Assembly: GCA_049317345.1 (NCBI GenBank)
Contig: JBMOIL010000001.1
Coordinates: 1-40,240, forward strand
Direction of reading: 5' to 3'
DNA length: 40,240 nucleotides
Origin: Candidatus Nanopelagicales bacterium
GTDB taxonomy: Bacteria; Actinomycetota; Actinomycetes; S36-B12
The position numbers and the translations under genes were made by a program. The notes under the pieces were generated by a model. That model was given only the letters and a program-made list of their open reading frames with translations. It made no database searches and was not told where the DNA came from. Below are positions 4,122 through 24,439 of the stretch, in pieces (position 1 is the stretch's first letter; every line of letters starts with the position of its first letter).

Positions 4122-4922
4122 GTGAGCAACAGGGAGCCCGGGCCAGGCAGGTCATCCGACGTCCTCGACGCAATCCTGGGCAAGGTCTCGGACAACCGCA
4201 CGCGCACGGAGACGACAAACGCTCTCTTCCGCGCCAAGGCCCTCGATCAGTTGGACATCGCAGCCGACATCGACAACCAACTCCCCCTGGTCTCGCGACG
4301 CAACTGGCTGCTCCTTGTCGGGGCCGCACTCATCGTCGTTGCCTTCGTGATCTGGGCGGCTCTGACCCCGGCCACCCAGTCGGTGTCTGGGACCGGGCGC
4401 ACCCTCGCGCCCTCCGGGCTGCTCTCCATCACGTCACCGGTCAGTGGATTTGTCGTCGAGATGACCGTCACCAGCAGCGATCCCATCCAGCCTGGCGACA
4501 AGGTCGCCCTGGTCCAGTCCGACTCTGCCCAGGTGCCGATCACGTCGATCGTCGCCGGCACTACCTGGCAGGTGTCGACGACGATCGGTTCGCCGGTGGC
4601 GCAGGGTGAAGTGATCGTGACCGTCCTGCCTGCCAAGTCGGAAACCACCGCCCTGGTGGTGCTGCCCGACGAGAGCGCCGAATTGGTGCGTGCCGGCATG
4701 ACGGTCAATGCCAACGGCAGCTCCGTAGGGACGGTCGCCGCCGTGCAGCCACCACTTCCCGCCGCGGAGGTCATGCAGCGGACCGGGATCACCGTGCCCG
4801 CGGGTCAGCTTGCCTCGATCGTCGAGGTCGCACTGTCGCAGCCCGCAGAGCCGGGGCGCTCGACGACCTACACCATCACGCTCACGAGCCAGTCGATCCT
4901 CCAGCAGATCTTCACGCGCTGA
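4122..4922 (+). CDS. NHLP-type bacteriocin system secretion protein (HlyD-like membrane fusion protein), set 1
   Basis: GTG start. It has the LFRAKALDQLDIAADIDNQLPLVSRRNWLLL motif followed by a single TM helix, then a beta-rich body. Its stop overlaps the next gene's start (TGATG). It is a paralogue of 26090-26872. Confidence 0.7.
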   Translation: MSNREPGPGRSSDVLDAILGKVSDNRTRTETTNALFRAKALDQLDIAADIDNQLPLVSRRNWLLLVGAALIVVAFVIWAALTPATQSVSGTGRTLAPSGLLSITSPVSGFVVEMTVTSSDPIQPGDKVALVQSDSAQVPITSIVAGTTWQVSTTIGSPVAQGEVIVTVLPAKSETTALVVLPDESAELVRAGMTVNANGSSVGTVAAVQPPLPAAEVMQRTGITVPAGQLASIVEVALSQPAEPGRSTTYTITLTSQSILQQIFTR

Positions 4923-7108
4923 TGTCGACGACAAGCCCGCCGCAGGCATCTACGAAGTCGGAGCATCCTCGAAAGCTCCGGCGGCGCGTACCCAGCATCC
5001 TCCAGATGGAGGTCACCGAGTGCGGGGCGGCGAGCCTTGGCATGGTCCTTGCGTACTACGGGCTCTTCCGCCCGCTCGAGGAGCTCCGGATTCGGTGCGG
5101 AGTCGCTCGTGACGGGGCGACCGCAAGGAACATCGTCCAGGCGGCACGCGCATACGGACTGAAGCCCCGCGCGATGAAGCGGGAGCCGCACCAGCTCAAG
5201 GACATGGCGTTTCCGCTCATCATCCACTGGCGCTTCTACCACTTCCTCGTTCTCGAGGGGTACTACCCCGGCGGCTGGTACTTGAACGACCCTGCCATGG
5301 GTCCGCGTACCTGCGACGACGATGAATTTGACGAGTCCTTCACCGGAGTCGCCATCGAGTTCAGCCCGGACGAGGGGTTCGAACCGGGCGGCAAGAGGCG
5401 CGGGGTCCTCGGCCGTCTGCTCTCGGCGGCAGGGACGGTCCGGCCGATGATGATCTTCTCCGCAATCCTGGCCCTGCTTCTCGTCGTCCCCACGATTCTT
5501 GTGCCCGCTGTCGTGCAGCTCTTCGGAAACGGCCTTGCCGGCGCCGAGGGAATCGCTCTTCAGGCTGCCATCCTCGGGCTGGCCATCGCTCTGGTCATGC
5601 AGGTGCTCCTTCTGTGGCTCCAGGGCGGGCTCTCGATGCGACTTGCCACCAAGATCACGACTCGTGTCGGTGCTGGCATGGTGCTTCGCCTCCTTCGATT
5701 GCCGATGGCCTTCCATGCCCAGCGCGGCGCGAGTGCCCTTGCCCAGCGCGCGCTCCTCATCGACCAGATGAGTGCCGCCGTGACCGCAGTTCTCGTCTCA
5801 GCCACCGGGGGAATGCTGCTCGCGGTCGTGGCCGGCGTGGTGCTTTTGGCACTCAACTGGGTGTCAGGTCTCGTTGCCGCTGCAGTCGCGCTCACGACCG
5901 CCCTCACGGTCCGGCACACCCTGGCAAAGTCGCGCGACGAGGCCAGTCGCGTCATCCGGGAGTACGTCGAGGTCGGCGCGGTGATGTCCTCCTCGCTAAG
6001 CCAGATCGAGCCCATTAAGGCATCCGGCACGGAGGACGGGATCATCGCCCGCGGCCTAGCGGCCGAGAACCGGCTGTTGGATGCCCAGCAGCGCATCGGC
6101 GTCCGCTCGCTCAACCTCACGATCCTGCCGGGGGTCCTCGCGGGAGGAGGCACTGTCCTCATCGCCATGGCAGCCGCGTGGCAGGTGCTCTCGGGCAACC
6201 TCGATCCAGGGGGATTCCTCGCTGTACTTGCCCTCGCCGCTGTCGTCATCGCGCCCATGTCGCAGGTGGTGGTCGCACTGGACCAGGCCCAGACACTGAG
6301 AGCAACCCTGGACCAGGTGGATGACATCTCCGACGCACCCGAGGATCCAGAGCTCGCCAACGTGCCGGAGGGCGAAGTGCCGGCCACGCTCGCGGGCGAC
6401 CTGCGACTGGTCGACGTGACCTTCGGTTACAGCCCCCTCGGTGAGCCGACGATCAGCAATCTCGACCTGCACATCTCCCCCGGCCGACGCGTGGCTCTCG
6501 TGGGTCCCAGTGGCTGCGGCAAGTCCACCGTGTCCCGTTTGGTCACCGGCCTGTACGCGCCCACCTCAGGTGAACTCCTCATCGATGGCCGGCCACGCTC
6601 TCAGCACGCACGGGGCGTCCTCACCGATCGCATCGCTCTGGTGGATCAGGATGTGACGATTTTCAGCGGCACGCTGCGCGACAACGTGACGCTCTGGGAT
6701 CCGACCATCTCGGATCGCGACGTCATGGCCGCGCTCGTCGACGCGCAACTGGGCGACCTCGTGGCCACGCGACCCGGCGGCCTCGACACCGAGTTGACGG
6801 AGGGTGGCGCGGACCTCTCGGGGGGCCAGCGCCAGCGCATCGAGATCGCCAGGGCGTTGGCCCGCAATCCCGTGCTCCTCGTCATGGATGAAGCGACGAG
6901 CGCCCTGGATCCGGTGACAGAAGAAGCCATTGACGTCGCGGTACGTCGGCGCGGCATCACCTGCCTGGTCATCGCGCATCGGCTCTCGACGATCCGCGAC
7001 AGCGACGAGATCGTCGTCATGCGTCAGGGACGGGTGGTTGAGCGAGGAACGCACGACGAGTTGATGCGCACCGGCGGCGCCTACGCACAGTTGGTGGGAA
7101 CCCAGTGA
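4922..7108 (+). CDS. Peptidase C39-domain ABC exporter (peptidase/permease/ATPase), set 1, catalytically intact peptidase domain
   Basis: The N-terminus reads ILQMEVTECGAASLGMVL (Gln28, Cys34 at nt 5021-5023), followed by HWRFYHFLVLEG and NDP. This is followed by six predicted TM helices, Walker A GPSGCGKST, signature LSGGQRQR and Walker B LLVMDEATSALD. Confidence 0.9.
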   Translation: MSTTSPPQASTKSEHPRKLRRRVPSILQMEVTECGAASLGMVLAYYGLFRPLEELRIRCGVARDGATARNIVQAARAYGLKPRAMKREPHQLKDMAFPLIIHWRFYHFLVLEGYYPGGWYLNDPAMGPRTCDDDEFDESFTGVAIEFSPDEGFEPGGKRRGVLGRLLSAAGTVRPMMIFSAILALLLVVPTILVPAVVQLFGNGLAGAEGIALQAAILGLAIALVMQVLLLWLQGGLSMRLATKITTRVGAGMVLRLLRLPMAFHAQRGASALAQRALLIDQMSAAVTAVLVSATGGMLLAVVAGVVLLALNWVSGLVAAAVALTTALTVRHTLAKSRDEASRVIREYVEVGAVMSSSLSQIEPIKASGTEDGIIARGLAAENRLLDAQQRIGVRSLNLTILPGVLAGGGTVLIAMAAAWQVLSGNLDPGGFLAVLALAAVVIAPMSQVVVALDQAQTLRATLDQVDDISDAPEDPELANVPEGEVPATLAGDLRLVDVTFGYSPLGEPTISNLDLHISPGRRVALVGPSGCGKSTVSRLVTGLYAPTSGELLIDGRPRSQHARGVLTDRIALVDQDVTIFSGTLRDNVTLWDPTISDRDVMAALVDAQLGDLVATRPGGLDTELTEGGADLSGGQRQRIEIARALARNPVLLVMDEATSALDPVTEEAIDVAVRRRGITCLVIAHRLSTIRDSDEIVVMRQGRVVERGTHDELMRTGGAYAQLVGTQ

Positions 7109-9936
7109 GCACGACATCGCAGGTACGGCCCCTCACGGCAGTCGACACGCTGCGACCCGAGCCGGGGGAGGTCATCGATGTGCTGGAGGGGGAGGTGCTG
7201 GTCTTCGCCGTCGGCACCGACGATCACCGCACTCCCCTGTGCACAGCGCGAGCCGGCTCCGTAGTCGTCGGCTGCAACACTGCACCCGATGGAGCGACCT
7301 TGCTTGTCACCGGGCTACCCGGGGCGCAGGTGCGGGTCACATCACTCGACAGCAACAGCCTGAATGCCGGGCAGCTCGACACGTGGCTCGACCTCCTCGG
7401 CTCATCGCTCGCTCAGGGCCGATGGCCCAGCAGCCTGGTGCCTGTCGCATCCGCGGGCTCAATGCTCGCTCCCGGGGAGTGCGTCGGGCCGCAGCGAGAC
7501 GACCCGCACCTGGTCTGGGTGCGGCTCACCGCTGGCACTGCAGACCTATGCGGCCTGGATGGAGCCACACTTGACGCGCAGTCACCACCGATTCCGATTC
7601 CCCGCGGCACCTGGCTGCGTGCGGGTCTGAGGTGTCGGATTGCCGAGGCGGACCCTCCGAGCACCACCGGGGAGTGGGCTGACGCTCTCGACGTGTGGGG
7701 GCGACTCACGGTCTCCGCGGTCGAGTCGCGGGCACGCCGGGCGGACCTTGCGGCGGCCCTCGAACGCCAGGCCGTGGACGCACGTTCGGGCGCAGCAATC
7801 CACAAGGGGGTGGATCTGCTCACCACGGCGGTCGGCGCCAAGGAGCGTCCGCCCGCCCTTGCGGACGAAGCCCAATCCCAGCAACTCTTCGCGGCACTGA
7901 CAGCAGCACGGGCCAGCGGTCTGACGATCACCGATGAGGCGCTACTTCGGGCCGCCGAGGATGTCGACAGCGGACGGGATCCCGCGGCCGCCCTCGCCGC
8001 CGTCGCCGACGCACGCGCCCGGCCCATCACGCTCGAGGCAGGATGGCACCGTCGCGAGGGGACTGCGAAGTATGTCGACGTCGTGCAGGAGCATTCCCGC
8101 GCTAGCGAGCCCCGAGCGCTCGTGTGGCGACGCGGCTGGGTGCTCATCGATGCCGACGGCCAGGGCCTGCCAGTAGACGACGAGGTAGCCGAACGCATCT
8201 CCCGGAAGGCCATCGAGTTCCTGCCTGTCCTTCCGCCACGACCGAGCAGCCTCTCCGACCTCGTCCGGCTCGCACAGCGTGGCAGCGCACGCGAGTGGGT
8301 CGCGGTAGGCATCGTCACCGCCCTCGTTGCCTCTATGGCCTTCTTCACACCGTTTCTCCTGGGCAGGCTGCCGACGCTCTTCTCCCAGGACGCTCCCGCG
8401 ACCGCCTACGCCGCAATTTTCATCGCTCTCCTGCTCATCGTGCTGGCGGGCGCGGCATGGCAGGCAGTGCGCGCCCTGGCGCTGCTGCGCGCGCGGAGCC
8501 GATCCGTGGCCGTCGCCTCCGGTGCTGTGTGGGAACGCATCATGCGACTGCCCGCACCGTGGCATGGCTCACGCAAACTTGGCGATCGACTCAATCAGGC
8601 GAGCTCGGTGAACTTCGCGTCCGCTGCATTCCCGGACGAGACCCTCACTCAACTACTTAACACCGCAGCAATTTTCGGTGCTCTACTCGCCATCGCGACC
8701 ACCGGCCCGGTGCTGCTCGTCGCGCTGCTCATCGTGTTCGCTCTGCAGGGGCTCGTCATCGCCGGCTTCCTGCGCGCCACCGTGTCACGGGCATCCGATC
8801 GGATCACCGCTTCCGCGGATGCGAGCGGGAGGCTAATCGAGATCCTGAGGGCCATTCCGCGCCTGCGCGTGAGCGGGGCCGAGTCGCGCGCCTTCCTCCG
8901 CTGGGCGCAGCTCCAGGCGCGTTTCGCCCAGGCGGATCTCAGTCTCCGTCGGATCACCATGGTCCAGGGTGTGGTCATCGCAGCATGGCCCGTGTTCACG
9001 CTCATCGTCATCATCGCGGTCATCGGCGTGACCGGTGGCACCTTCGGTGACTTCATCACCGCGCAGACGGCTGCGACGGCAGGCACGGTTGCTATCTCCG
9101 CCCTCGCCATGTCGGGCGGCGCCGCTGTTGTGGCGCGCCAGTCTCTCCTGCGTACCCGCCCCGCGCTCGAGGCCGTGCCCGAAGGCGGGGGCGACGGAAT
9201 CCAGCCCGGTGCGTTGAGCGGACTCATCGAGGTGCGAGACATCGTCTTCCGCTACGCGCCGGGCCTGCCCCCGGTCCTGGACCACGTGAGCCTGACGGTC
9301 AACCCTGGCGAGCAGGTGGCCATCGTCGGACCGTCAGGATGCGGCAAGACGACGCTGATGCGCATCATCCTGGGCCTGGAGAACGCCGAATCCGGCGTCA
9401 TGCTGGTCGACGGCCGAGATCTCAGCGGCCTGGACAAGCCAGCCGTGCGACGCCAGGTGGGATCGGTGCTGCAGTCGGCGGTTCTTCTTCCTGCCAGCAT
9501 CCGCGAAAACGTCGCCATGGGCCGGACGCTCACGCAGGACGAGGTCTGGGCTGCTCTCGATGCCGCCTTCGTGGGGGACGATGTGCGCAAGCTTGCCATG
9601 GGTCTGGACACTCCCGTATCCGATGGCGGCGGCACGCTATCGGGAGGCCAGCGCCAACGCATCCTCATCGCTCGCGCACTCGCAGGCCGGCCGCGCGTGC
9701 TCGTCCTCGACGAGGCCACCAGCGCGCTGGACAACATCACGCAGGCCGGGATTGTCTCGGCGCTCGACCAGCTGAACATCACGCGCCTCGTCGTAGCGCA
9801 CCGCCTCTCAACGATCCGCAACGCGGATCGCATCTTCGTGCTCGACGGTGGCCGGCTGGTCGATGAGGGCACATACGAGGAGCTCATCAGTCACCCCGGC
9901 CCCTTCCGAGACCTCGCTCTCCGCCAGGAGACCTAG
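7105..9936 (+). CDS. ABC exporter permease/ATPase with a ~400-aa N-terminal extension (NHLP export partner), set 1
   Basis: GTGA overlap with the upstream gene. It has a TM region, Walker A GPSGCGKTT, signature LSGGQRQR and Walker B VLVLDEATSALD. The N-terminal segment GEVIDVLEGEVLVFAV...ARAGSVVVG looks like a cNMP-binding-like beta barrel. Confidence 0.85.
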   Translation: MSTTSQVRPLTAVDTLRPEPGEVIDVLEGEVLVFAVGTDDHRTPLCTARAGSVVVGCNTAPDGATLLVTGLPGAQVRVTSLDSNSLNAGQLDTWLDLLGSSLAQGRWPSSLVPVASAGSMLAPGECVGPQRDDPHLVWVRLTAGTADLCGLDGATLDAQSPPIPIPRGTWLRAGLRCRIAEADPPSTTGEWADALDVWGRLTVSAVESRARRADLAAALERQAVDARSGAAIHKGVDLLTTAVGAKERPPALADEAQSQQLFAALTAARASGLTITDEALLRAAEDVDSGRDPAAALAAVADARARPITLEAGWHRREGTAKYVDVVQEHSRASEPRALVWRRGWVLIDADGQGLPVDDEVAERISRKAIEFLPVLPPRPSSLSDLVRLAQRGSAREWVAVGIVTALVASMAFFTPFLLGRLPTLFSQDAPATAYAAIFIALLLIVLAGAAWQAVRALALLRARSRSVAVASGAVWERIMRLPAPWHGSRKLGDRLNQASSVNFASAAFPDETLTQLLNTAAIFGALLAIATTGPVLLVALLIVFALQGLVIAGFLRATVSRASDRITASADASGRLIEILRAIPRLRVSGAESRAFLRWAQLQARFAQADLSLRRITMVQGVVIAAWPVFTLIVIIAVIGVTGGTFGDFITAQTAATAGTVAISALAMSGGAAVVARQSLLRTRPALEAVPEGGGDGIQPGALSGLIEVRDIVFRYAPGLPPVLDHVSLTVNPGEQVAIVGPSGCGKTTLMRIILGLENAESGVMLVDGRDLSGLDKPAVRRQVGSVLQSAVLLPASIRENVAMGRTLTQDEVWAALDAAFVGDDVRKLAMGLDTPVSDGGGTLSGGQRQRILIARALAGRPRVLVLDEATSALDNITQAGIVSALDQLNITRLVVAHRLSTIRNADRIFVLDGGRLVDEGTYEELISHPGPFRDLALRQET

Positions 9937-9938
9937 TC

Positions 9939-11210
9939 GTGCAGGTCAGCGGGCGTCCCGCGGCCTTAGTTGTCGCACTGGCTCCAGGGGTGAAACGCAC
10001 CTGGTCTGGGCTCCACGGGACCACCGGGCACACACAGCTCACCGACGGTCCGCTGCTCGACGCCCTCGAGGAGGGCGCGACACTGCAGCGCCTGCTGGAG
10101 GTGGGCACGCCACGCGCTGGCCGCGACGTGAGGGGCGTCCTCGAGACCCTCCACCACAGGCGGCTCATTTGCTGGCAGGCCATGGATCCCAGGGGCACGA
10201 TCTGGGCAACGCTTCTGCCGCTGCGCAGTGACCTTCCGCTTCCGGAGCCACCCACCGAGGCCGTCGAGCACAGCATCCATCTGTCACGCTTCGCGCTCAT
10301 GCGCTCAACCGGGGACCTGTGGTTAGTGGAGTCCGGACGCTCGCCGTTCTGCGCGATCTTGTCAGGCGAGGCATCAGCAGCATTCACCTCCGGCGAGGGG
10401 CCAGTCGAGCTCGGGTCGCTCCTAGCGATGGGCTGCCTCCTCGACGACAGCGACGACGACGGGCTCGCGCGCTACTGGGAGTTTCACGATCGATACTTTG
10501 CCTCGCGATCGCGCATGGACTCCGCCCCGAGCGGCGGGACCTTCCGCTTCGCCGGCGTCCACGACCCGGAGCCCGCCATCTCTCGGCCACCGCACGTGGG
10601 TCCCGTGATCGAGTTGCCTATTCCCGACCCCGGCGACCCCGGCCCAGGGATTTGGCAGGTCACGGAGAGTCGTCGCAGCCATCTCGACACTAGCGACAAG
10701 GCGCTGGAACTCGATCGGCTCGGCTCCCTCCTGTGGCACACCCTGCGCGTGACCGATTCGCGTCTACGCGATCCCCAATCGGCGACGTCGTACGACGGCA
10801 TTATGCGTCCCATTCCCTCGGGAGGTGGCACTCACTCGATTGGGCTGTGGCTCGGCGTGCGCAATGTCGCGGGCATCGACTCCGGGGCGTGGTGGTACGA
10901 CCCTGAGGAGCATGCGCTGGTGCGCGTCGCGGACGTACCCGAGCAATTCGGCGAGACGACTGTCGCTGTCCACGGCCTGCTCATCAGCCGTCACGCGCGC
11001 CTGGCGTGGAAGTACGAGGGGATTGCCCATGCGCTCGCGCTCAAGGACTGCGGGGTGATCCTGCACGCCCTGCAACTCGGGGCCACGGCACTTGGTCTTG
11101 CCATGTGCCCGATCGGGAGTGGTCCCACGGCGCCCGTGCTCGATGCCCTGGGACTCGATGAGGATGAGTACATACCCGTGGGAGAGTTCTGGTTGGCGAT
11201 GCCGCTCTAG
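9939..11210 (+). CDS. SagB/ThcOx-type FMN dehydrogenase (azoline oxidase)
   Basis: GTG start 2 nt after the upstream stop. The C-terminal nitroreductase-like half has MRPIPSGGGTHSIGLWLGVRNVAGIDSGAWWYDPEEHALV and ALKDCGVILHALQLGATALGLAMCPIG, which is typical of SagB-type dehydrogenases. Confidence 0.8.
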   Translation: MQVSGRPAALVVALAPGVKRTWSGLHGTTGHTQLTDGPLLDALEEGATLQRLLEVGTPRAGRDVRGVLETLHHRRLICWQAMDPRGTIWATLLPLRSDLPLPEPPTEAVEHSIHLSRFALMRSTGDLWLVESGRSPFCAILSGEASAAFTSGEGPVELGSLLAMGCLLDDSDDDGLARYWEFHDRYFASRSRMDSAPSGGTFRFAGVHDPEPAISRPPHVGPVIELPIPDPGDPGPGIWQVTESRRSHLDTSDKALELDRLGSLLWHTLRVTDSRLRDPQSATSYDGIMRPIPSGGGTHSIGLWLGVRNVAGIDSGAWWYDPEEHALVRVADVPEQFGETTVAVHGLLISRHARLAWKYEGIAHALALKDCGVILHALQLGATALGLAMCPIGSGPTAPVLDALGLDEDEYIPVGEFWLAMPL

Positions 11211-11914
11211 GACCCATCGGCGAGGGCAGCGAGTTCTCGCCAGGTTTCCTCGTCGCCGTGGCCGACCGCCGCGTCCACCCACTCGTCGGCCAGCGCCTCG
11301 CGCACCGCATCGGCGGGCACGGTCGCTCTATTTGCCGGAGCGCGTCGAAGCCAATCTGGGTGCACCCGCGCCCATCGCGCGAGATCGTCCGCTCTCGTCG
11401 ACAGGTCCTCGGTCCGGCACCACCAGGTGCGGTCCCGGGGCAACGCGGCGATGGCCTGTGCCGCCTGGCGCCAGTAGCCCATGGCCGCGTTAAGAAATGC
11501 CTGCGGCTCCTCGAGGGGCTGTGATCCCATGTCGTCAGCGCCGCTCGCGCGTCCCCACGCAAGGTGCTCTTCGCTCACCTCACCCATCGCAATCAGCATT
11601 CCGGCGAGGGAACGACACCAGTCGCGTGGATGCCGCACCGTGGCGACGAAGCGAGCGTCGGGGAAGAGGGCGGGCAAGCGGTCGGCCCAGGACCACAGGA
11701 AACTGGTCGAGTCCACCTCGGCGTTGCAGCGTTGATCGCGGGCAATCAGCCACGCTGCCACGTCTGCACGCGTCATCTCCCCGGCCTGCTCAAGGAGGCG
11801 CACATGCGCTGCCTCATCCATCTCGAACTCGTGGCGCGCACGAAGCACAGGAGCGAGCATCGTTGCGATTGACGTCGTGCCGCTCTTGGGCATGCCGCAC
11901 CCGATGAGATGCAC
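11207..11914 (-). CDS. Sulfotransferase-fold protein (PAPS-binding motifs), copy 1
   Basis: GTG start. It has a 5'-PSB-like loop GMPKSGTTS near the N-terminus and a 3'-PB-like VATVRHPRDWCRS. It is a paralogue of 15440-16312. Its stop overlaps the convergent SagB stop (CTAG). Confidence 0.6.
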   Translation of the reverse strand: MHLIGCGMPKSGTTSIATMLAPVLRARHEFEMDEAAHVRLLEQAGEMTRADVAAWLIARDQRCNAEVDSTSFLWSWADRLPALFPDARFVATVRHPRDWCRSLAGMLIAMGEVSEEHLAWGRASGADDMGSQPLEEPQAFLNAAMGYWRQAAQAIAALPRDRTWWCRTEDLSTRADDLARWARVHPDWLRRAPANRATVPADAVREALADEWVDAAVGHGDEETWRELAALADGS

Positions 11915-11948
11915 TCGACGAGAGATAGCGAAGACGATGACAGCCCCC

Positions 11949-12722
11949 TCACTGAGCTTGAGGACGGATCTCAGTGAGCAGCGGCGTCACCGCGTTGACC
12001 GCACGGGCGCCATAGGCGCGATCGGGGAAGATCCGCCTGCGGTAGCGCTCACGGCCGTCGGTGAAGAGCGGGCGGTCATCGGACTCCAGGCGCGCACCGT
12101 CGAGATAGGTGATGAAACTGACGGCCAGAGTCATCTCTTCGTACGTCTGGCCAGCATGCTCGGCGTTCACATCGTGATACGACAGCGCGCCAGGAGTCAT
12201 ACCGCTGAAGGTGTAGCTCTCGGCATCACCCGTCTGGCGGGAACGGTAGAGCAGCCCTTGCTCGGTGGGCGCGGCGATGACGGGCAGCCAGTACTGCAGG
12301 ACCGGGCCGGTGATCGGGATAAACCCGGCGTCCGCGTGCCAGAAGGTGCCGGGCTCGCCTGCAGGCCTATAGAAGATGACCCACGTGGCGAAGCGCACGT
12401 CATCTCGGCCATACCCCTCGTAGACGATGCGGTGCAGGGACTCCTGTCCCAGCAGGTCGATGACGGAATCGGGTGCCTCGTCGAGTCGCCATGCGAGGTG
12501 CCGCTCCTCGCGGCGATCGGTAACCGTGGATGCGCTGCTGCCCCACACGCCGTGATGCAACCGCAGCAGGTCGGCCCCCGCCGCAGCGGCAAGGTCTGCG
12601 GGCACGGCATCGGCTACTGCCGAGAAGCCGTGCTCGGAGAGGAAGGCCACGTGATCGAGCGGTGGCGCCATCACGTGAAGGGTCGCCGGATCGTAGTCAT
12701 TCGACAGCACACACCCGCTCAT
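11949..12722 (-). CDS. PhyH-like Fe(II)/2-oxoglutarate dioxygenase, copy 1
   Basis: ATG at 12722 is preceded by GGGAGG; the ORF track's GTG at 12728 is also possible. It has the N-terminal FLSEHGF, an HxD in FWHADAG and a distal His in SYHDVNAEHAG. Confidence 0.6.
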   Translation of the reverse strand: MSGCVLSNDYDPATLHVMAPPLDHVAFLSEHGFSAVADAVPADLAAAAGADLLRLHHGVWGSSASTVTDRREERHLAWRLDEAPDSVIDLLGQESLHRIVYEGYGRDDVRFATWVIFYRPAGEPGTFWHADAGFIPITGPVLQYWLPVIAAPTEQGLLYRSRQTGDAESYTFSGMTPGALSYHDVNAEHAGQTYEEMTLAVSFITYLDGARLESDDRPLFTDGRERYRRRIFPDRAYGARAVNAVTPLLTEIRPQAQ

Positions 12723-12749
12723 GTGCACCTCCCTTCGCGCATGCTCAGG

Positions 12750-13685
12750 CTACCTCTGCCCCGGCAGCAGGATGTGCGCTCCCACGTACGCCTTGACCTT
12801 GCCACCCGGCCCCATCTTGATGTGGTCAATGCCGCTGAGCAGACGAATCGCCGGAAGCGAGTCGAACATGTGGATGCCCTGGACCTCGAGCAGCGCGGAC
12901 AGGCTGCGAGCGGCATCCCCCCACAGAGGGCTTGGCTGTAGCACGGGGTGCCACCTTCCCTCCACCATCGCCTTCTCACGTTCCCAGAAGGAGCCTTCCC
13001 ACGAGACAGAGCTGCGGCCCTCGGCATCCGTGCCCACCGCGACCGCCGAGCCATCAAGCTCGCGCATCAGGTGAGCAACAAGGGCGCTCCGGGGATCCAC
13101 GGCGATCGTCGCCCACGAAGCGAGCCCTTCGATCAGACCCACTGCCGCACTGTCGAAGTCAGGTAGGAGGGCCGCAGCCACCGGCGAGGGTTGACGTTCG
13201 GGGAAGAAACCGATCAGTCGACCTGGACCGCGCCAGTGGGGGGCAATCGCAGACTCGAGGATGCCGACGGCTCGAGCAAGTTCATGATCCGACTCGGCAG
13301 CGCCTCTGACAGTCGGCAGGGCATCGGTGCACTCTGAGCGGATGAACACCCCGACAGGGCTGCGGGCCTCGGACGTGTCGAGTTCCCACCACGTGCTCTC
13401 CGACGACCCAACCGACATGGCCAGGGATGACAGGGCGCCATGGCCACTTCGAGCAAAGTGAGGGACCCGCCGGGACGGCATCAGGACTGAGATGTCACAG
13501 GCTGCCGGATGCGGCGGCAACACGACTTCCAGGCCGAGGGCTATCGTCGAGAGCACATCTAGATGAGATAGCGCGTCGCGAGCACGAGCAGCGTCGGCCT
13601 CGGGCACCAGCGGCCCGAGGATCTCGATGATGGGATCCACAAGGCCCACGAGGGAGTCTGGCACCCTCCGGGGAAAGGCGGGCAT
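12750..13685 (-). CDS. Hypothetical protein (311 aa), no confidently recognised domain; possibly an ABBA-type aromatic prenyltransferase fold
   Basis: The ORF is translationally coupled to the upstream gene (TGATG). It has no TM helix or signal peptide. There is a weak resemblance to the NphB/CloQ family (GRLIGFFPER; GGKVKAYVGAHI near the C-terminus; ~310 aa). Confidence 0.5.
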   Translation of the reverse strand: MPAFPRRVPDSLVGLVDPIIEILGPLVPEADAARARDALSHLDVLSTIALGLEVVLPPHPAACDISVLMPSRRVPHFARSGHGALSSLAMSVGSSESTWWELDTSEARSPVGVFIRSECTDALPTVRGAAESDHELARAVGILESAIAPHWRGPGRLIGFFPERQPSPVAAALLPDFDSAAVGLIEGLASWATIAVDPRSALVAHLMRELDGSAVAVGTDAEGRSSVSWEGSFWEREKAMVEGRWHPVLQPSPLWGDAARSLSALLEVQGIHMFDSLPAIRLLSGIDHIKMGPGGKVKAYVGAHILLPGQR

Positions 13686-14419
13686 CACGAGCGGGTCAGC
13701 GATGCCAAGGCAGGGGTGGCGGCGGTCACGACGGAGCCGCGGTGGCGCAGGTCAGGTGAGATCCGACGACACAGTTGCCCGCGCATGCCGCGCAACTGCG
13801 GCCAGTCGCCCAGGTCGATCCGCGCTCGAGAACCAGCGACTGCGATGCCGAAGGCCAGGAAGTCGACGGGGCAGTCCTCGGCCTTATGCACAACGGTCAT
13901 GTTGTGCCACGTGAGATCTCCGGGGTCGAGATCCCACTGGCGAGCAGGCCGCGGGCCGGTGCCATCGACATCGGCAAGTGCAACGAGGCCGGTGCGGGTG
14001 GGCACGTGCGTGAGGGGAATCCAGAATGCAACGCAGGGACCGGCCACCGGGACGGCCACGTCATCGCTGTGCCAGGGCGTCGCAGGAGCGCCTGCCCGCC
14101 GGGCGAAGGCCTGCCAGGACATGACGTGCGGCTCGTCTCCGTCGAGGAGTTCACGTGCGATGTCGGTCAACTCGACCAGGCGCAAGTCAGCCACAAGGTC
14201 GTCGGGTATCGCGGATACCGGCCACGGCATCGACCGCTGGATGCTCGATGTATCCGCGGGGAGAGTCGCCTGCATCGCATCGTGCAGCTGCCAGACGCGC
14301 CTACCGAGGGACACTGCTTCGTCCTGGGTGTAGAAGCCCTTGCGCCCGCTGTAGCCATGCTGGCGGAAGTAGGCCACGGGGTCGTTAGGAAACGCATGGT
14401 CGATGACCTCGCGGGACAT
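13685..14419 (-). CDS. PhyH-like Fe(II)/2-oxoglutarate dioxygenase, copy 2
   Basis: ATG at 14419 is preceded by GAGG; a GTG at 14446 would overlap the upstream gene by 17 nt. It has YFRQHGY, an HxD in PWHSDD and a distal His in TWHNMTVVHKAED. Confidence 0.6.
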   Translation of the reverse strand: MSREVIDHAFPNDPVAYFRQHGYSGRKGFYTQDEAVSLGRRVWQLHDAMQATLPADTSSIQRSMPWPVSAIPDDLVADLRLVELTDIARELLDGDEPHVMSWQAFARRAGAPATPWHSDDVAVPVAGPCVAFWIPLTHVPTRTGLVALADVDGTGPRPARQWDLDPGDLTWHNMTVVHKAEDCPVDFLAFGIAVAGSRARIDLGDWPQLRGMRGQLCRRISPDLRHRGSVVTAATPALASLTRS

Positions 14420-14429
14420 CGGATCGACC

Positions 14430-15443
14430 TCAGCTGACGTGCCCACCGGTCGTCCCCTCTCGCGTCAAGGCGCCCAGAGCGCGCACGACCGTGGCGGTGG
14501 TGAACACCCGACGCAGATCCTCCACCACGGCGCCCTCGATGCGGCCACCGGGAACCCAGTCGACCACGGAATCAGGGTCGGTGTCCTCGGGATGCGGCAC
14601 GCGCAGAAGCGCGCCGGGAGCCCACGACCCGTCGGGGAGCATGGTGAAGGTCAGCGCGCGCACTGCGGATACGGCCGGCGCTTCCCCGGACCGGCCGGTG
14701 AGGACAGCGATGAGCAGGAGGTTGGCGGTCTCGAAGGCAGTCAGGCCATCCGAGGTCAGGGCGGCCAAGGCCCAGTCACCCGCATGCGCGAGTGCGGGCG
14801 CAGCGGAGTCGAAGGGCGAAAGAGACTCCACGGACAGGGCCGTCGCGAAGGAATCAGACGCCCACCAATAACTGCGCCACCGGCCGTCCGGGCGCTGCGC
14901 CGCGACGAGGACGGCGGGGTCGACGAGTCCGTCGACGGAAGCAGCGGCCGCCGTGACGCACGCATGACCGGCAGTCCACCCGCGGAAGTCCTGATCGGAG
15001 TTGGCATCGATGAAGCGTGCAATATCGGCCGTGGGGCCATACGTCCCGAGAAGCCCGTCAGAGTGCGTGAACGCCGTCAGGCTCGCACGCGCATCCCGAG
15101 CAATCTGGTCGTCTCCACGTCCGATTCGCTGGGCGAGGCGCAACGCCCAGGTGGTGGAGTCCGCGTCCTGAGGGACCTGCACGTTGTATCCCCACCCGGC
15201 ACCCGTCCGCTCGTGGCGCCGCGCCTCAAGCGCCCGCCACGCTCGGTCTACCGCATCGCGCGTACCGGTTTCGCCCGCAATTCGATCGCCGACGTACCCG
15301 GTGATCCACTCGTCAGACAGCCCGGGTGCGAGGAGGAAGTCCGACCACAGTCCCTCAGGCGACTGGCGCTCGACGAGGAATGCAGTGCCAGCGCCGCGGG
15401 CATCCTCCGGGGTCCGAGCCAGGGCGGACCACACGCTGGTCAC
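14430..15443 (-). CDS. Prenyltransferase/squalene-oxidase-repeat (terpene-cyclase-fold, alpha/alpha toroid) protein
   Basis: GTG at 15443 forms a GTGA overlap with the upstream stop. It has QW-like repeats (RQSPEGLW, QRPDGRWRSYWW, MLPDGSWAP) and GAGWGYNVQVPQDADSTTWALRLA, which resembles the GGWG...DxDDTA region of class II terpene cyclases. Confidence 0.55.
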   Translation of the reverse strand: MTSVWSALARTPEDARGAGTAFLVERQSPEGLWSDFLLAPGLSDEWITGYVGDRIAGETGTRDAVDRAWRALEARRHERTGAGWGYNVQVPQDADSTTWALRLAQRIGRGDDQIARDARASLTAFTHSDGLLGTYGPTADIARFIDANSDQDFRGWTAGHACVTAAAASVDGLVDPAVLVAAQRPDGRWRSYWWASDSFATALSVESLSPFDSAAPALAHAGDWALAALTSDGLTAFETANLLLIAVLTGRSGEAPAVSAVRALTFTMLPDGSWAPGALLRVPHPEDTDPDSVVDWVPGGRIEGAVVEDLRRVFTTATVVRALGALTREGTTGGHVS

Positions 15444-16312
15444 TGCGGCCGACCCTCTTGGTTGTCCCAGCCCACGAGTTCCGCATCGACGCGACGGAGG
15501 TAGTCGTCCCATCCGGACGGGTCCGAGTTCACCGTGCGATTCAGGATCCGTGCGTGCTCGTCGGGGAAGTGCTCTGCCATGAGTTCAGCGCAGTGCTCGG
15601 CATAGACCCGATCGACCTCGTCTCGATCCGCGATCACGAAACGGTCGAATGTGGCCACGGTCCTGTTGCTGTGCACGGCATCCATGACCAGCGAATCCAC
15701 GGGGATCTTCAGGAACTCTGCAAGTTCCGGCGTGCGGGCGGTGATCTCGGAGGTCTTAAGCCACAGTGTGCTCTCAGCGGGAAGCACCGTCGGCATGTGA
15801 CGCATGTAGGTCGCCCAGGTGCGCATCAGAGCGGGAAGCGCAACCGTGTCGATGTCATCTCGTCCGAAACGAAAGGGGATGGTCCCCTCACCCGCCCAAT
15901 CGCCGTAGCTGTCTATCCAACCGCGCCGTCTCTCCTGGTAATCAGTTGGCATGCGCCGCACAGAGGTGCACATGCTCAGCATGGAATTCACCCACGAGCG
16001 CACATCACGGTACGTCACGATGAAACTTGCCTTGGGATACTGCTCCATGAGGACGTCCGCGTAGAGGTGATGGCAGGTCACCGCATCCATCTCCGCTCGC
16101 AGGGGCACGAATCGGCGCTTGACGGTCGCCCAGAAGGCGGCGTCGTCGATCTCGCCTCGCGCGCGCGCGACGCCGGCGGTCGCGAGGAAGTCCAACCACG
16201 TCTCGTGGCCCGCGCGGTACTCGCCCATGAGACCCGCGAGCGACGTCGATCCCGTCTTGGGCAATCCCACGACGTAGGCGTGGAAACGCAGCCAGGGCAT
16301 CTGACTACTCAC
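15440..16312 (-). CDS. Sulfotransferase-fold protein (PAPS-binding motifs), copy 2
   Basis: GTGA overlap with the YcaO stop; ATG at 16300 is an alternative start. It has a 5'-PSB-like GLPKTGSTS and a 3'-PB-like IVTYRDVRSWVNS. Confidence 0.6.
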   Translation of the reverse strand: MSSQMPWLRFHAYVVGLPKTGSTSLAGLMGEYRAGHETWLDFLATAGVARARGEIDDAAFWATVKRRFVPLRAEMDAVTCHHLYADVLMEQYPKASFIVTYRDVRSWVNSMLSMCTSVRRMPTDYQERRRGWIDSYGDWAGEGTIPFRFGRDDIDTVALPALMRTWATYMRHMPTVLPAESTLWLKTSEITARTPELAEFLKIPVDSLVMDAVHSNRTVATFDRFVIADRDEVDRVYAEHCAELMAEHFPDEHARILNRTVNSDPSGWDDYLRRVDAELVGWDNQEGRPQ

Positions 16313-18465
16313 AGGATCATGGCCCTCGGGTTCAGGTCGGCCTCGCCGTAGCCCCCATCGCGCCAGCCCAAGAGTGGAGGTACGTCGTAGAGCCGGCCGG
16401 GTGCGTAGCGATTCCAGAAATGGCGGATGCCCGGGGCGTAGGTCCGCACGATGCTCAGTTGCATGTCCGGCCGGCTGGAGTCGGCCCAGAGCACGGTGAG
16501 GCCAGCGTGCTCCATGCGAGCGACCACGTCATCGATGGCGTCACCCAGGGCGGCGTAGCGGGGCGCATCGGGCGGGGCGACATGACCGTGCGGGGCCATC
16601 CACGGGTGGTCGGCGACGGTCACCTGCGTGAACCACTTCTGCTCCCCGGGACCCATGCCCTCGACCGCATCGGTCACGCAGCGATAGAAGCCGGCCTGCA
16701 TCTGGGCCAGCTCGGTGAGGGCGCGGACGACGGCGAGAGCCGGATCGACGTGCGCGCCGTATCCCATGATCGGAGCCTGTGTGGACGGCATGCCCTGCGC
16801 AACAGCAACCGCGGCCGGGATCCCGAGGTCGGAGGTGATGTCCAGGACCCAAACCTCGTTGCCGAGCGCACGCTGCGGCGCGAGAGCCGCTTCGATCCGA
16901 GGGTCATCCCACGCAGCGAGGTCGAACGCCGGACGGTTGCACATCGGATGCCACCACAGCGCAACCGAGTCGCGTTCGACCAACTCGAGCAGGCCCTGGA
17001 GGATCGCCTCTTCAAGCGTGTTGCCGGCGGCAGCGCCGTTGGAAGATCCGCGGTAGGCGCCCGGATCCAGACCGGGCCAGTCGAACCACACGAGCGATGA
17101 CGGCAACCACCTCGTCTCACCGGTGCGCAGATCCGCGACCGGGCTCCAGTCGTGCTCGACCTCGACGTCGAAGGGGAGTGGGACCGGTCGATGGCCAGCC
17201 TGATCGGGCACATTCAGCATCCCGAACGCGGCAAGTCCCTCGGCCTTGCGTAATTGCGCTTCGCTGAAGAGCTCGACGTCATTGGGGTGGATGGCACCCT
17301 CGAGGTCAGCCATACGGGCCCGTCTGAACGGCTCGCCCCCCGTCGCCCGCAGTCCGCCTCGCTCCAAAGCCTCCGCGAGCGCCCCGGTGCGAGCGCCCGA
17401 CCGGGTGATCCCCTTCCCGCCCGCACCCGACCTCAGTCGCGAGGAGAATGCAACGGGATCGTCCAGCGCTGCGGCGTTCAGCCCGGACGAGTAGGAGCGC
17501 AGCTCACGGCGGGGCCCGGGGACGACGTAGGGCACCAGACCGACGACGTCATTGACGAGGTGAGCGTGGTCGTCCCATGTGTCCTCCGGGTCCACCGTGC
17601 GATAGCCGCCCCCGCCACCGTCGTCGAAGGTCGCGTCCTCCAGTGACAGCGGGCCATCGAGATGTCGCATCCGCGCAGTCGGGCCACCCGGCTCGCACGC
17701 GGCGCACCCAGGGACGGGAACGACCACGTACCGCTGCATCGCCGCAGTACTGACATCGAAGGCGACGACCTGCCTCTCCCACTCCGATGCTGTGGCAATC
17801 TGCGCGACGGCGGCAGCGGCAGCGGCCACGGATGACGGATGACGGATCGGGTGAGCCGGTGGTACCGCGAGTCCGACGCGCTGCGCGCCGACGACCTCGG
17901 CGGACAGGCGATGGCGCAAGCGAGCGTCCAGGCATGCGGGGCAGCGACCGCGCTCCCCGGGGACGAGAACCGGGCTGACGACCGCACGCGCCCCCCGCAT
18001 GCTCACGGCGACGTATGGACCGTCCGGCACCTGATCCGCCCCTTGCATCGCGAGCGCGTGGGGGACGACAACGACCGGGAGCGCGCCGGGTGAGTCGTGC
18101 ACATCTACGCCGATGGCGCGCAGCGCCTCCGAGAGGAGATGAGCGTCATCGAGGCCATCGGTGGCGTCGATAACACGCACGGAGGCAGGAGTGGGGCCCA
18201 CAGCCGAGCCTTGGTCGACAACATGTCCCGATGCTCGCCACTTGCCCAGGATTTCGCGCGCACGGTCACGAGCAAGTCCCGCGGACTCCGCACTCGCGAC
18301 GATCGTCTCCTCGTCGCCACCCGCGTCCACGGCACGCGCCAGGGGGCCGGCGCCTCGACCGGCGAGGCGCACGGGGCCATCACCACCGAACATCCAGACT
18401 TCAGCGTCGTCGGCGCTCACGATGATCGAGCGGTCAGGTCGCCACGACAGGCTCGCCGATGTCAT
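16309..18465 (-). CDS. Fused cyclodehydratase: E1/ThiF-like docking domain + YcaO (SagD-type) domain
   Basis: The N-terminal half has paired CxxC motifs (RCPACLD ... GCAACEPG), typical of the ocin-ThiF-like domain. The C-terminal half has YcaO motifs (GAGGKGITRSGARTGALAEALER, SSNGAAAGNTLEEAILQGLLELVERD). The start is set at ATG 18465, because the longer ORF (to 19005) would run antisense through precursor A1. ATG 18576 is also possible. Confidence 0.85.
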   Translation of the reverse strand: MTSASLSWRPDRSIIVSADDAEVWMFGGDGPVRLAGRGAGPLARAVDAGGDEETIVASAESAGLARDRAREILGKWRASGHVVDQGSAVGPTPASVRVIDATDGLDDAHLLSEALRAIGVDVHDSPGALPVVVVPHALAMQGADQVPDGPYVAVSMRGARAVVSPVLVPGERGRCPACLDARLRHRLSAEVVGAQRVGLAVPPAHPIRHPSSVAAAAAAVAQIATASEWERQVVAFDVSTAAMQRYVVVPVPGCAACEPGGPTARMRHLDGPLSLEDATFDDGGGGGYRTVDPEDTWDDHAHLVNDVVGLVPYVVPGPRRELRSYSSGLNAAALDDPVAFSSRLRSGAGGKGITRSGARTGALAEALERGGLRATGGEPFRRARMADLEGAIHPNDVELFSEAQLRKAEGLAAFGMLNVPDQAGHRPVPLPFDVEVEHDWSPVADLRTGETRWLPSSLVWFDWPGLDPGAYRGSSNGAAAGNTLEEAILQGLLELVERDSVALWWHPMCNRPAFDLAAWDDPRIEAALAPQRALGNEVWVLDITSDLGIPAAVAVAQGMPSTQAPIMGYGAHVDPALAVVRALTELAQMQAGFYRCVTDAVEGMGPGEQKWFTQVTVADHPWMAPHGHVAPPDAPRYAALGDAIDDVVARMEHAGLTVLWADSSRPDMQLSIVRTYAPGIRHFWNRYAPGRLYDVPPLLGWRDGGYGEADLNPRAMIL

Positions 18466-18633
18466 GTGCGAATCCGACGTTGTCGATTGGACAGGAACAC
18501 GTGGTGATAGTAGCCATGCCTGGGGGTCGCCGGCCCCGACAGAGAAACTCACCCCCGAAGGGGCCGCGAGGTCCATTCTTGACGTGGCATCATCGCTATG
18601 TAGGCCTACTTGGCCCAGACTCGGAGGTTTCCC
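18466..18633. promoter_or_regulatory. Divergent intergenic region between the tailoring operon (- strand) and the precursor/rSAM operon (+ strand)
   Basis: The call rests on position only. It is the sole gap from which both divergent operons can be transcribed. TTGACG lies at 18579-18584, but no well-spaced -10 box was found. Confidence 0.3.
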
Positions 18634-18903
18634 ATGGCTGTCCCGACACGATCCGAAGTGGAGGCGACCATCGCCGAGCGGATCGCCGCCGACCCCGCCT
18701 TCCGCGACGGGCTCCTCGCTGATCCCCGCGCCGTACTCTCCGAGGTCGTCGGCTTCGACATCCCCGACACCGTCCAGGTCGTCCTGCACGAGGAGTCCCT
18801 CACCCAGATCCACCTCACCATCCCCTCCAGCGCCGAGCTCAGCGAGAGCGACCTCGAGCTCGTCGCAGGCGGCAGGTGCTGGGTGGATGGGTGCACCACA
18901 TGA
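18634..18903 (+). CDS. NHLP-leader RiPP precursor A1 (core RCWVDGCTT)
   Basis: GGAGG lies 6 nt upstream of the ATG. The leader is MAVPTRSEVEATIAERIAADPAFRDGLLADPRAVLSEVVGFDIPDTVQVVLHEESLTQIHLTIPSSAELSESDLELVAGG. Confidence 0.9.
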   Translation: MAVPTRSEVEATIAERIAADPAFRDGLLADPRAVLSEVVGFDIPDTVQVVLHEESLTQIHLTIPSSAELSESDLELVAGGRCWVDGCTT

Positions 18904-19051
18904 GGTAGCACTCCGTGAAGGAGCAGGCAGCGACAAGTTGAGCCTGGCGCATGCCCCCCACTTGTTCATCGAAAGCGTTTCGTTCGGTGGCCCGTTTAGG
19001 CCCATACGTCAATGAACCTGTGCGTCAAGCGCTGTCGACTTGGAGGTCTCC

Positions 19052-19348
19052 ATGGCTGTTCCCACCCGATCCGAGGTCGAGGCGATCATCGCTGAGCGCA
19101 TCGCTGCCGATCCTGCCTTCCGCGACGCACTCCTCGCCAACCCGCGCGCCGTACTCTCCGAAATCGTCGGCCTCGACATCCCCGACGGTATTCAGATCGA
19201 CCTGCACGAGGAATCGCTCACCCAGATCCACCTCACCATTCCCGGCACAGAGGAACTCAGCGACTCCGACCTCGAACTCGTCGCGGGCGGGTTCTGGGCT
19301 GGCGATGAGGCATGCGAGAGCGGCTCGTGCTCATGCGACCACGGCTGA
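19052..19348 (+). CDS. NHLP-leader RiPP precursor A2 (core FWAGDEACESGSCSCDHG)
   Basis: GGAGG RBS. It has the same leader family, with the EIVGLDIPDGIQIDLHEE variant, and ends in LELVAGG. Confidence 0.9.
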   Translation: MAVPTRSEVEAIIAERIAADPAFRDALLANPRAVLSEIVGLDIPDGIQIDLHEESLTQIHLTIPGTEELSDSDLELVAGGFWAGDEACESGSCSCDHG

Positions 19349-19447
19349 CGCCCCCATGAATTGATCTCAACGGGGGGGTGACAGCGACACCCAAGGGGCC
19401 TAGAGTTGTCGGTCGACACGCCGTGCCTATCTACGTGGAGGCTTGCT

Positions 19448-19738
19448 ATGGCTGTTCCCACCCGCGCCGAAGTCGAGGCGACCATCGCCGAGCGCATCGC
19501 GGCCGACCCTGATTTCCGCGACGCGCTGCTGGCCGACCCTCGCGCCGTACTATCCGAGCTTGTCGGCTTCAACATCCCCGAGAGCGTCCAGATCGTCCTA
19601 CACGAGGAATCTCTCACCCAGATCCACCTCACCATCCCGTCCAGCCAGGAACTAAGCGAGGCCGACTTGGAACTGGTGGCTGGCGCCGGGGAGTGCTGGT
19701 CAGAGTTCAACATGTGCTGCTCCGCCGGCTGCATCTAG
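19448..19738 (+). CDS. NHLP-leader RiPP precursor A3 (core ECWSEFNMCCSAGCI after LELVAGAG)
   Basis: GGAGG lies upstream of the ATG. The leader begins MAVPTRAEVEATIAERIAADPDFRD... and has the GAG variant of the double-glycine site. Confidence 0.9.
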   Translation: MAVPTRAEVEATIAERIAADPDFRDALLADPRAVLSELVGFNIPESVQIVLHEESLTQIHLTIPSSQELSEADLELVAGAGECWSEFNMCCSAGCI

Positions 19739-22485: not shown

Positions 22486-22536
22486 AGTAGGGGGCATACT
22501 CAAGGAGTCACTAGACCATGATGCCCGGAGGTCCAC

Positions 22537-22821: not shown

Positions 22822-22986
22822 CCCGCTTCGATCCAGCCGGTGAACAACCGCTGCCATCAAGAACTCCCCGGATAGCGGCGGGGATGGGTCTGCCGGAGTG
22901 GTTCACGGCAGTGCACGTGAAGGTGATGCAGCCGAACTCAACATCACCCTGCCGGGCCCGCTCGACACTGATGCCCGGAGGTCCCC

Positions 22987-23268: not shown

Positions 23269-23389
23269 CGAGTGCAGTGGACCCCGCGACATGCCCTCAG
23301 GGCCAAGAGTTCACGCGCAAACCGCCGCGCGCCCCTCAAGTAGGGGGCATACTCGATGAACCACTCACCCCTGATGCTCGGAGGTCCCC

Positions 23390-23674: not shown

Positions 23675-23733
23675 CCACCGGGCCCGCAGAGCCGCCATAC
23701 TCACCAATCACGCAGGCCCATACGGAGGACCCC

Positions 23734-24438: not shown

Positions 24439-24439
24439 G

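Follow-up and report, generated by a model that had tools for sequence, protein, structure and literature searches.

A minus-strand operon running from position 18465 to 11207 of a 40,240-nt stretch of contig JBMOIL010000001.1 (assembly GCA_049317345.1, Candidatus Nanopelagicales bacterium; hereafter the window, to whose full length all coordinates refer) carries seven genes in the order YcaO-ST2-X-PhyH2-Y-PhyH1-ST1. The first (16309..18465) encodes a YcaO cyclodehydratase with a fused leader-binding (E1-like) domain at its N terminus (Pfam YcaO, 240.8 bits, with matches to TIGR03604 and TIGR03882). It is followed by ST2 (15440..16312; 290 residues), a predicted sulfotransferase of the type that uses 3'-phosphoadenosine 5'-phosphosulfate (PAPS); X (14430..15443; 337 residues), a predicted MstE-like class II terpene cyclase; PhyH2 (13685..14446; 253 residues), a PhyH-fold Fe(II)/2-oxoglutarate (2OG) oxygenase; Y (12750..13688; 312 residues), a predicted aromatic prenyltransferase of the ABBA fold; PhyH1 (11949..12728; 259 residues), a divergent paralogue of PhyH2; and ST1 (11207..11914; 235 residues), a shorter paralogue of ST2. 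An initial annotation had recognized two PhyH-like proteins and two proteins with PAPS-binding loops at 11207-16312, and all four are present there on the minus strand with the motifs that it quoted. It had described them as a two-plus-two arrangement, whereas X and Y, which lie in the same interval and went unmentioned, make the arrangement two plus two plus two, the oxygenase and sulfotransferase genes being interspersed with those of a prenyltransferase and a terpene cyclase.

The four genes had also been assigned to a single operon with the YcaO gene, and the junctions bear this out. The genes are collinear and, with the start codons chosen in this analysis, the YcaO/ST2, ST2/X and PhyH2/Y junctions are 4-nt GTGA overlaps; X and PhyH2 overlap by 17 nt, an upper limit obtained with the longest open reading frame (ORF), and the Y/PhyH1 and PhyH1/ST1 gaps are 21 and 34 nt. 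The G+C content at third codon positions is approximately 0.78 in all six genes from ST2 to ST1, as in the adjoining SagB gene, while the long plus-strand ORFs opposite these six genes show no such consistent pattern. The longest ORF for YcaO (16309-19005, minus strand, 898 residues) runs antisense over a precursor gene at 18610-18903 on the opposite strand and, because of this overlap, the ATG at 18465 is probably the true start.

Pfam and NCBIfam gave nothing useful for X, Y or PhyH1. However, a profile built from four X sequences and compared with the Protein Data Bank (PDB) matched MstE (6sbf) over its whole length with an E value of 1.1e-33, and also matched the protein named 'Prenylcyclase' (6ij1; E = 5.9e-31) and monodomain squalene-hopene cyclases (E = 5e-16). 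The acid motif, QDADSTTW in X and GDADTTGW in MstE, includes the invariant residues D93, D95 and T97. MstE protonates the terminal alkene of a geranylgeranyl arene to cyclize it (PMC9401909). X resembles MstE in being a monodomain class II cyclase, in the full-length match and in the D-A-D-(T/S)-T motif, but identity between the two is low, and the substrate of MstE is free geranylgeranyl-dihydroxybenzoate rather than a peptide. These comparisons lead to the prediction that X is an MstE-like class II terpene cyclase.

Y belongs to no Pfam family and matched no sequence in the PDB, even with the profile approach that identified X. Its AlphaFold2 model (pLDDT 94.3) contains five alpha-beta-beta-alpha repeats arranged as a barrel, and in Foldseek every match up to E = 0.001 (ranks 1-28) is an ABBA/DMATS-type aromatic prenyltransferase, among them CymD (E = 2.6e-5, TM score 0.57), PriB, 5-DMATS, 6-DMATS, CloQ and LimF; KgpF falls just below this cut-off. 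Many of these neighbors are specific for Trp or indole. Judged by its modeled fold, Y is an ABBA aromatic prenyltransferase. A lanthipeptide-like route, with X as a LanC-like cyclase and sulfation as the activation for dehydration, was considered and was ruled out by the matches of X to MstE and of Y to prenyltransferases.

The relationship between these two proteins was followed in a comparison set of about 30 related metagenomic loci (designated by L numbers), whose gene content was determined by a census of the fetched loci with hidden Markov models (HMMs). X and Y co-occur in every related operon long enough to show both. In L003 and L005, two unnamed genes were not connected to X and Y by tblastn or BLASTP but were connected by alignment and HMMs. 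Furthermore, an exhaustive profile search recovered two fusion proteins of ~666 residues (P0181 and P0183) in which Y is N-terminal to X; the Y family counts 214 members. Because the two are fused in these proteins, Y and X are regarded as one functional unit.

A fold classification, proposed in the initial annotation as a check on the two P-loop proteins, places them among the sulfotransferases by Pfam, by profile comparison and by invariant motifs, so that the refuting outcome named there, membership of some other class, did not occur. ST1 and ST2 score 42.5 and 40.6 bits against Sulfotransfer_4 (gathering cut-off 22.8) and 35.8 and 30.6 bits against Sulfotransfer_3 (cut-off 27). ST2 carries a 5'-phosphosulfate-binding (5'-PSB) loop, GLPKTGSTS (16241-16267), a 3'-phosphate-binding motif, YRDVRSWVNS (R102...S110; 15983-16012), and an E74-x-D76 segment (16082-16096); the corresponding segments of ST1 are GMPKSGTTS (11870-11896), VRHPRDWCRS (11609-11638) and AEVDS (11708-11722). 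In an alignment of 17 diverse members, including ST1, that share 23-88% identity, P18, K19, G21 and S24 of the 5'-phosphosulfate loop and R102 and S110 of the 3'-phosphate motif are invariant, as are R33, H36, E37, R67, E74, D76, W107 and W166. ST1 and ST2 are paralogues (27% identity, E = 4e-14), and ST1 retains every family-invariant residue.

The closest solved proteins are sulfotransferases from Schistosoma, including the oxamniquine-activating enzyme, with E values of 0.002-0.08 for single sequences and 2.8e-10 over residues 10-205 for the family profile. SULT-OR (4mua, 5tiv; Sulfotransfer_4) is the best solved relative of both proteins and shares the PSB loop and the R...S motif; it differs in being a eukaryotic small-molecule enzyme and in lacking a conserved C-terminal region of ~85 residues found in ST2-type proteins, which is also absent from ST1. 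In the alignment, the counterpart of ST2 D76 is the Asp in the 'ATTD' segment of the schistosome enzymes, with the H36-E37 pair equally invariant. In SmSULT, the acceptor hydroxyl forms a hydrogen bond with Asp91 (PMC4618941), and the aligned residue is probably this Asp, making D76 a candidate catalytic base. Tyrosylprotein sulfotransferases are matched weakly by the family profile (E about 0.1), and the best-matching family is Sulfotransfer_4 rather than the tyrosylprotein type. By every sequence test ST1 and ST2 are sulfotransferases, and PAPS-dependent transfer is predicted. ST2 is taken to be the ancestral copy because it is closer than ST1 (43% identity versus ~31%) to the single sulfotransferases of L003 and L005, whose clusters have no PhyH gene.

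The assignment of the remaining pair to the PhyH fold was likewise upheld, for PhyH2 by Pfam (33.9 bits; cut-off 22), modeling and Foldseek, and for PhyH1, which had no match in the Pfam search, by paralogy with PhyH2 alone (27% identity over 249 residues, E = 6e-28). PhyH2 contains PWHSDD (H126-x-D128; 14060-14077) and TWHNMTVVH (H187; 13886-13912), and PhyH1 contains FWHADAG (12324-12344) and the distal-His segment SYHDVNAEH (12156-12182). In an alignment of 27 members from both paralogue groups (PhyH2 numbering), H126, D128, H181, H187, W111, F114, R116, G119 and T123 are invariant; PhyH1 keeps every invariant catalytic position, and the HxD...H iron-binding triad (H126, D128, H187) is kept in both groups. 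The AlphaFold2 model of PhyH2 (pLDDT 93.2) matches SnoN best (E = 1.8e-11, TM score 0.61), and the 50 best listed neighbors all have the PhyH fold, nearly all being characterized Fe/2OG oxygenases or halogenases. They include MysH, SnoK, EctD, human PhyH, the terpenoid or prenyl-indole oxygenases PrhA, SptF, FtmOx1 and PtlH, and ThoJ, a hydroxylase of ribosomally synthesized and posttranslationally modified peptides (RiPPs). PhyH1 and PhyH2 are PhyH-fold Fe/2OG oxygenases.

The probable substrates are encoded on the plus strand by 11 intact NHLP precursor genes and one incomplete copy (25624-25824), arranged in two arrays. Three lie at 18610..19738 (TIGR03793, 63.4 bits), with the cores RCWVDGCTT, FWAGDEACESGSCSCDHG and GECWSEFNMCCSAGCI following a GG/GA site, and eight intact genes and the partial copy lie at 22522..25824; the gene at 24634-24918 encodes the core MCWSDVCSCLSIGP. 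The leaders are of the NHLP type (TIGR03793, above cut-off), end in a double-glycine site and are nearly identical within the window, where the cores are hypervariable and Trp alone is constant. No residue other than this Trp, at core position 2-4, occurs in every core of the window and of all related loci, across phyla. The two residues that follow it vary in the clade of the window (S/A/V/G/R, then D/E/N/G/P), although Asn or Asp two residues past Trp is common; few of the 11 window cores contain Tyr, which most relatives lack. More distant relatives show the core pattern x-C-W-x-N-(x)-C, and C-W-x-N cores were observed in L003, L005, L008 and L011-L013. Ser, Thr and Tyr are all missing from cores of two clusters that contain a sulfotransferase, L003 (GACWDNCNCGV) and L005 (EMCWGNCGNCAP).

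The homologues of ST2, Y and PhyH found so far all come from metagenomes or metagenome-assembled genomes (MAGs) of uncultured bacteria. ST2-type genes accompany Y, X, YcaO, a radical SAM enzyme and NHLP precursors, and most such loci have no PhyH gene. The simplest layout, YcaO-Y-X-ST without PhyH, is found in L003, L005, L008, L010, L012 and L013, from Actinomycetota, Gammaproteobacteria and Acidobacteria. In L019 and L021, which are both short contigs, the available sequence has one sulfotransferase gene and one PhyH2-type gene between X and Y. The full order of the window is shared by L001/L025, L023 and L028-L030, of which L028 belongs to MAG GCA_046081405.1, and is partially represented in L022, L026 and L027. 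L031 (10616 bp) has this order minus ST2 (YcaO-X-PhyH2-Y-PhyH1-ST1); ST1 may have replaced ST2 there, or ST2 may be located elsewhere. Wherever a PhyH2-type gene occurs, X and Y flank it, and ST1 lies directly 3' of PhyH1 in every PhyH1 locus that extends past PhyH1 (L001/L025, L022, L023, L026-L032). A metagenome scan for PhyH1 found three loci only. In L003, a class II lanthipeptide synthetase (DUF4135 and LANC_like) and small ORFs were noted beside the YcaO/Y/X/ST cluster (14848-17865).

Both readable loci with Y-X fusions also carry a sulfotransferase, of the Sulfotransfer_1 family (56.9 bits in L033 and 49.5 bits in L035); apart from the PSB loop, hhalign detected no significant resemblance between this enzyme and the ST2 family. 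The cores at these loci share only Trp. At 4801-5430 of L033, directly after the fusion gene and beside the Sulfotransfer_1 gene and a PqqD-like protein, there is a P-loop kinase (PRK, 31.8 bits; APS_kinase, 14.5 bits, below cut-off), which could be a PAPS-supply or phosphorylating enzyme.

The conserved unit across these loci is a prenyltransferase, a cyclase and a sulfotransferase acting on a Trp-containing NHLP peptide. Because ST2-type enzymes occur without an oxygenase, sulfation appears to be tied to the prenyltransferase-cyclase unit and not to PhyH. For the same reason, and because some cores in sulfotransferase clusters have no hydroxyl amino acid and a second, unrelated sulfotransferase family adjoins the fused Y-X proteins, the isoprenoid-Trp unit is the favored acceptor for ST2. 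The product is, therefore, likely to be a ribosomal peptide bearing a cyclized, oxidized and sulfated isoprenoid, and not a peptide sulfated on its own residues. The initial annotation had suggested the latter, with possible hydroxylation followed by O-sulfation at two sites or on two substrate subclasses and with Ser, the Asp/Asn after Trp, or Tyr as acceptors. In such a scheme, the PhyH enzymes would beta-hydroxylate Asp/Asn after Trp or other residues, and the sulfotransferases would O-sulfate these, or Ser or Tyr, at two sites that are independent of the isoprenoid. It draws support from the presence of ThoJ among the structural neighbors of PhyH2, from the frequent Asn or Asp two residues past Trp, from the conserved adjacency of PhyH1 and ST1, and from the use of Tyr by the characterized RiPP sulfotransferases SslST and RaxST (PMC11143521). 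However, ST2 orthologues reside mostly in clusters without PhyH, some of which have cores that contain no Ser, Thr or Tyr; the residues after Trp are variable and Tyr is found in few precursors of the window clade, so that none of the acceptors suggested earlier is conserved; and the sulfotransferases beside Y-X fusions are of an unrelated family and face cores that share Trp only. Sulfation on peptide residues is, on this evidence, considered unlikely. The idea of hydroxylation-sulfation pairs survives for PhyH1-ST1, which are always adjacent, and fails for ST2, given its orthologues in clusters free of PhyH; PhyH2, for its part, sits between cyclase and prenyltransferase and, in the sequence available of L019 and L021, is found with only one sulfotransferase, which does not fit the role of partner to a sulfotransferase of its own.

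Gene content, folds, conserved catalytic motifs and co-occurrence are observed; from them we infer the following scheme, including every chemical step and its place in the sequence, the length of the donor chain and the atoms that serve as acceptors. Y would transfer a polyprenyl group to the core Trp, and X would protonate the terminal double bond and cyclize the chain. YcaO and SagB would convert the flanking Cys residues to thiazoles. ST2 would then sulfate an acceptor within, or created by, the prenylated or cyclized isoprenoid-Trp unit, most plausibly an alcohol formed by the capture of water that ends cyclization. PhyH2 would oxidize the same unit, which is its most likely substrate because its gene is always between X and Y and because several of its structural neighbors act on terpenoids or prenylated indoles. 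Finally, PhyH1 and ST1 would form a lineage-specific addition in which PhyH1 hydroxylates and ST1 O-sulfates the new hydroxyl; these two were likely gained together, never to be separated, and are the sole fit to a sequence of hydroxylation and then sulfation. That the interval encodes, in this manner, the tailoring half of an operon for thiazole-containing NHLP peptides whose invariant Trp receives an isoprenoid that is cyclized, oxidized and sulfated is given roughly even chances.

Sulfate might instead serve as a cryptic leaving group for elimination, substitution or ring closure, leaving a mature product free of sulfate. Sulfation reportedly activates a hydroxyl in the reactions of the CurM sulfotransferase domain and of Schistosoma SULT-OR on oxamniquine, and a reaction of the SULT-OR type yields a reactive sulfate ester. 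The nearest solved relatives of ST1 and ST2 are these Schistosoma enzymes, and the sulfotransferase gene is tightly coupled to enzymes of the carbocation type (the prenyltransferase and cyclase). This reading has no known precedent among RiPPs and is purely inferential, and no lyase, thioesterase or other partner is evident; it is considered quite improbable.

Several observations weigh against the scheme proposed above. Class II cyclization need not end in an alcohol, since MstE ends by aromatic substitution, and a tertiary alcohol would be an unusual target of sulfation. Gene tables revealed neither a polyprenyl diphosphate synthase gene nor a PAPS-synthesis gene in the window or beside its relatives. 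An Arg located ~10-11 residues past the distal His ordinarily binds the C5 carboxylate of 2OG, and this residue is absent from both PhyH paralogues throughout the 27-member alignment: its position is occupied by the invariant A198, R209 is variable, and the sole invariant Arg, R116, is upstream of HxD. PhyH1 and PhyH2 may bind 2OG in another way or use another co-substrate. The association of genes also has exceptions. In L009, where a sulfotransferase and a radical SAM enzyme accompany a typical precursor, neither Y nor X nor YcaO is present within 10 kb, and candidate ORFs for divergent X and Y in this locus look like antisense noise; L036, a more distant NHLP cluster with a prenyltransferase and a cyclase, lacks a nearby sulfotransferase; and the sulfotransferase homologues of L014-L016 lie outside any RiPP context. 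The link between the sulfotransferase and the prenyltransferase/cyclase is recurrent, not universal.

Two of these observations, the missing PAPS-synthesis gene and the homologues of L014-L016 (P0079-P0082), speak for a further alternative, that the ST-like proteins are not sulfotransferases of this pathway but bind another nucleotide, act as a non-catalytic scaffold or sulfate a small molecule, for example in self-protection. The latter homologues, from MAGs of Nitrospirae and Nitrospinota, are ~30% identical, are fused to an N-terminal helix-turn-helix (HTH) domain, and have no RiPP genes detected nearby. This alternative is difficult to reconcile with the invariance of PKxGxxS, R...S and the candidate base Asp in all 17 aligned members, including ST1, or with a gene order and translational coupling to maturases that are conserved across phyla, and it is deemed highly improbable.

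Among known systems, the closest to the proposed sulfated isoprenoid peptide are the NctPC/ChrPC fusions. As summarized in a review (PMC13290415), NctPC combines ABBA prenyltransferase and MstE-like cyclase domains, geranylgeranylates a RiPP Trp and then cyclizes the chain; the same summary attributes polycyclic-isoprenoid RiPPs from NctPC/ChrPC fusions to Hubrich et al. (Chem, 2024). Likened on the architecture described there, the systems share an ABBA prenyltransferase, an MstE-like cyclase, a Trp acceptor and fusions of the Y-then-X order. In contrast, the enzymes of the window are split and translationally interleaved with oxygenases and sulfotransferases; fused E1-YcaO, SagB, a radical SAM/SPASM enzyme and DUF2332 are also present; and the sulfotransferase is conserved, with oxygenases added in the window clade. 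The 2024 paper may already list such sulfotransferase-containing clusters. Literature searches combining YcaO or NHLP with sulfotransferase yielded no work bearing on clusters of this type.

In the sulfated RiPPs known so far the modified residue is Tyr, and the lanthipeptides among them come from clusters with cysCDN (PMC11143521). The ssl and ssc clusters have these genes, whereas the window does not. The analogy to RaxX drawn in the initial annotation proved superficial. RaxX/RaxST and SslST resemble the present system in pairing a PAPS-type sulfotransferase with a RiPP cluster, and RaxX is also exported by HlyD and a C39-peptidase ATP-binding cassette (ABC) transporter, but these exporters are generic for double-glycine leaders, a specific Tyr is sulfated in the known systems while no conserved Tyr exists here, and the enzymes appear to belong to another family than ST1 and ST2, for which Sulfotransfer_4 is the best match. 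ThoJ and TvaJ of thioamitide biosynthesis provide a precedent for a PhyH-fold enzyme in a YcaO-containing RiPP cluster (E about 5e-10 for ThoJ); they differ in that identity is <20%, in the canonical Arg, which is absent here, and in gene position, which suggests a prenyl-unit substrate for the enzymes of the window.

A SagB-type FMN dehydrogenase for the conversion of azolines to azoles is encoded at 9939..11210 on the plus strand (Pfam Nitroreductase, ThcOx; TIGR03605, 101 bits); it converges with ST1 on the minus strand, and because their 3' ends overlap by 4 nt (11207-11210), there is no space for terminators between the two operons. An export and leader-cleavage set consisting of a HlyD-like protein, a C39-peptidase ABC transporter and a second ABC protein (4122..9936, plus strand) is also found in related loci, and a second such set lies on the plus strand at 26090-31292 (HlyD-like, 26090-26872; C39-ABC, about 26869-29142; ABC, 29139-31292). 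Also on the plus strand are genes for a radical SAM/SPASM peptide maturase (19936-21501) and, next to it, a DUF2332 protein (21505-22485); they adjoin one another throughout the cluster family, in which both are conserved. Matches of the maturase to models of cyclophane- and thioether-forming enzymes all fall below the respective cut-offs. W-x-N in the cores of distant relatives resembles the three-residue cyclophane motif that radical SAM/SPASM maturases make, so that the Trp may serve twice. The flanks (1334-4005, 37514-38335, 39430-40091) encode a copper amine oxidase, a matrixin-like metallopeptidase, a VanX-like D-Ala-D-Ala dipeptidase and a Phd/PIN toxin-antitoxin pair. The metallopeptidase adjoins HlyD and is a possible candidate for a leader protease.

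To our knowledge, the first descriptions of cyclized-terpene ribosomal peptides date from 2024 and few such peptides are known, and sulfated ribosomal peptides are rare, with all characterized examples sulfated on Tyr. The operon and its relatives connect these two groups of natural products, the sulfotransferase being a near-constant partner of the prenyltransferase and class II cyclase. The two overlooked genes, X and Y, are the informative ones and change the interpretation of the locus. It is tentatively suggested, at somewhat less than even chances, that these clusters make the first sulfated isoprenoid-peptide hybrids, ribosomal peptides with thiazoles in which a hydroxylated, O-sulfated cyclized terpene is borne on Trp, and that at least two unrelated sulfotransferase families were recruited independently for this purpose in uncultured Actinomycetota, Acidobacteria and Gammaproteobacteria. 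If the sulfate is carried on the isoprenoid, the products would represent a new amphiphilic lipopeptide chemotype, and their biosynthesis would provide new peptide-directed sulfotransferases and terpenoid-oxidizing PhyH enzymes for engineering.

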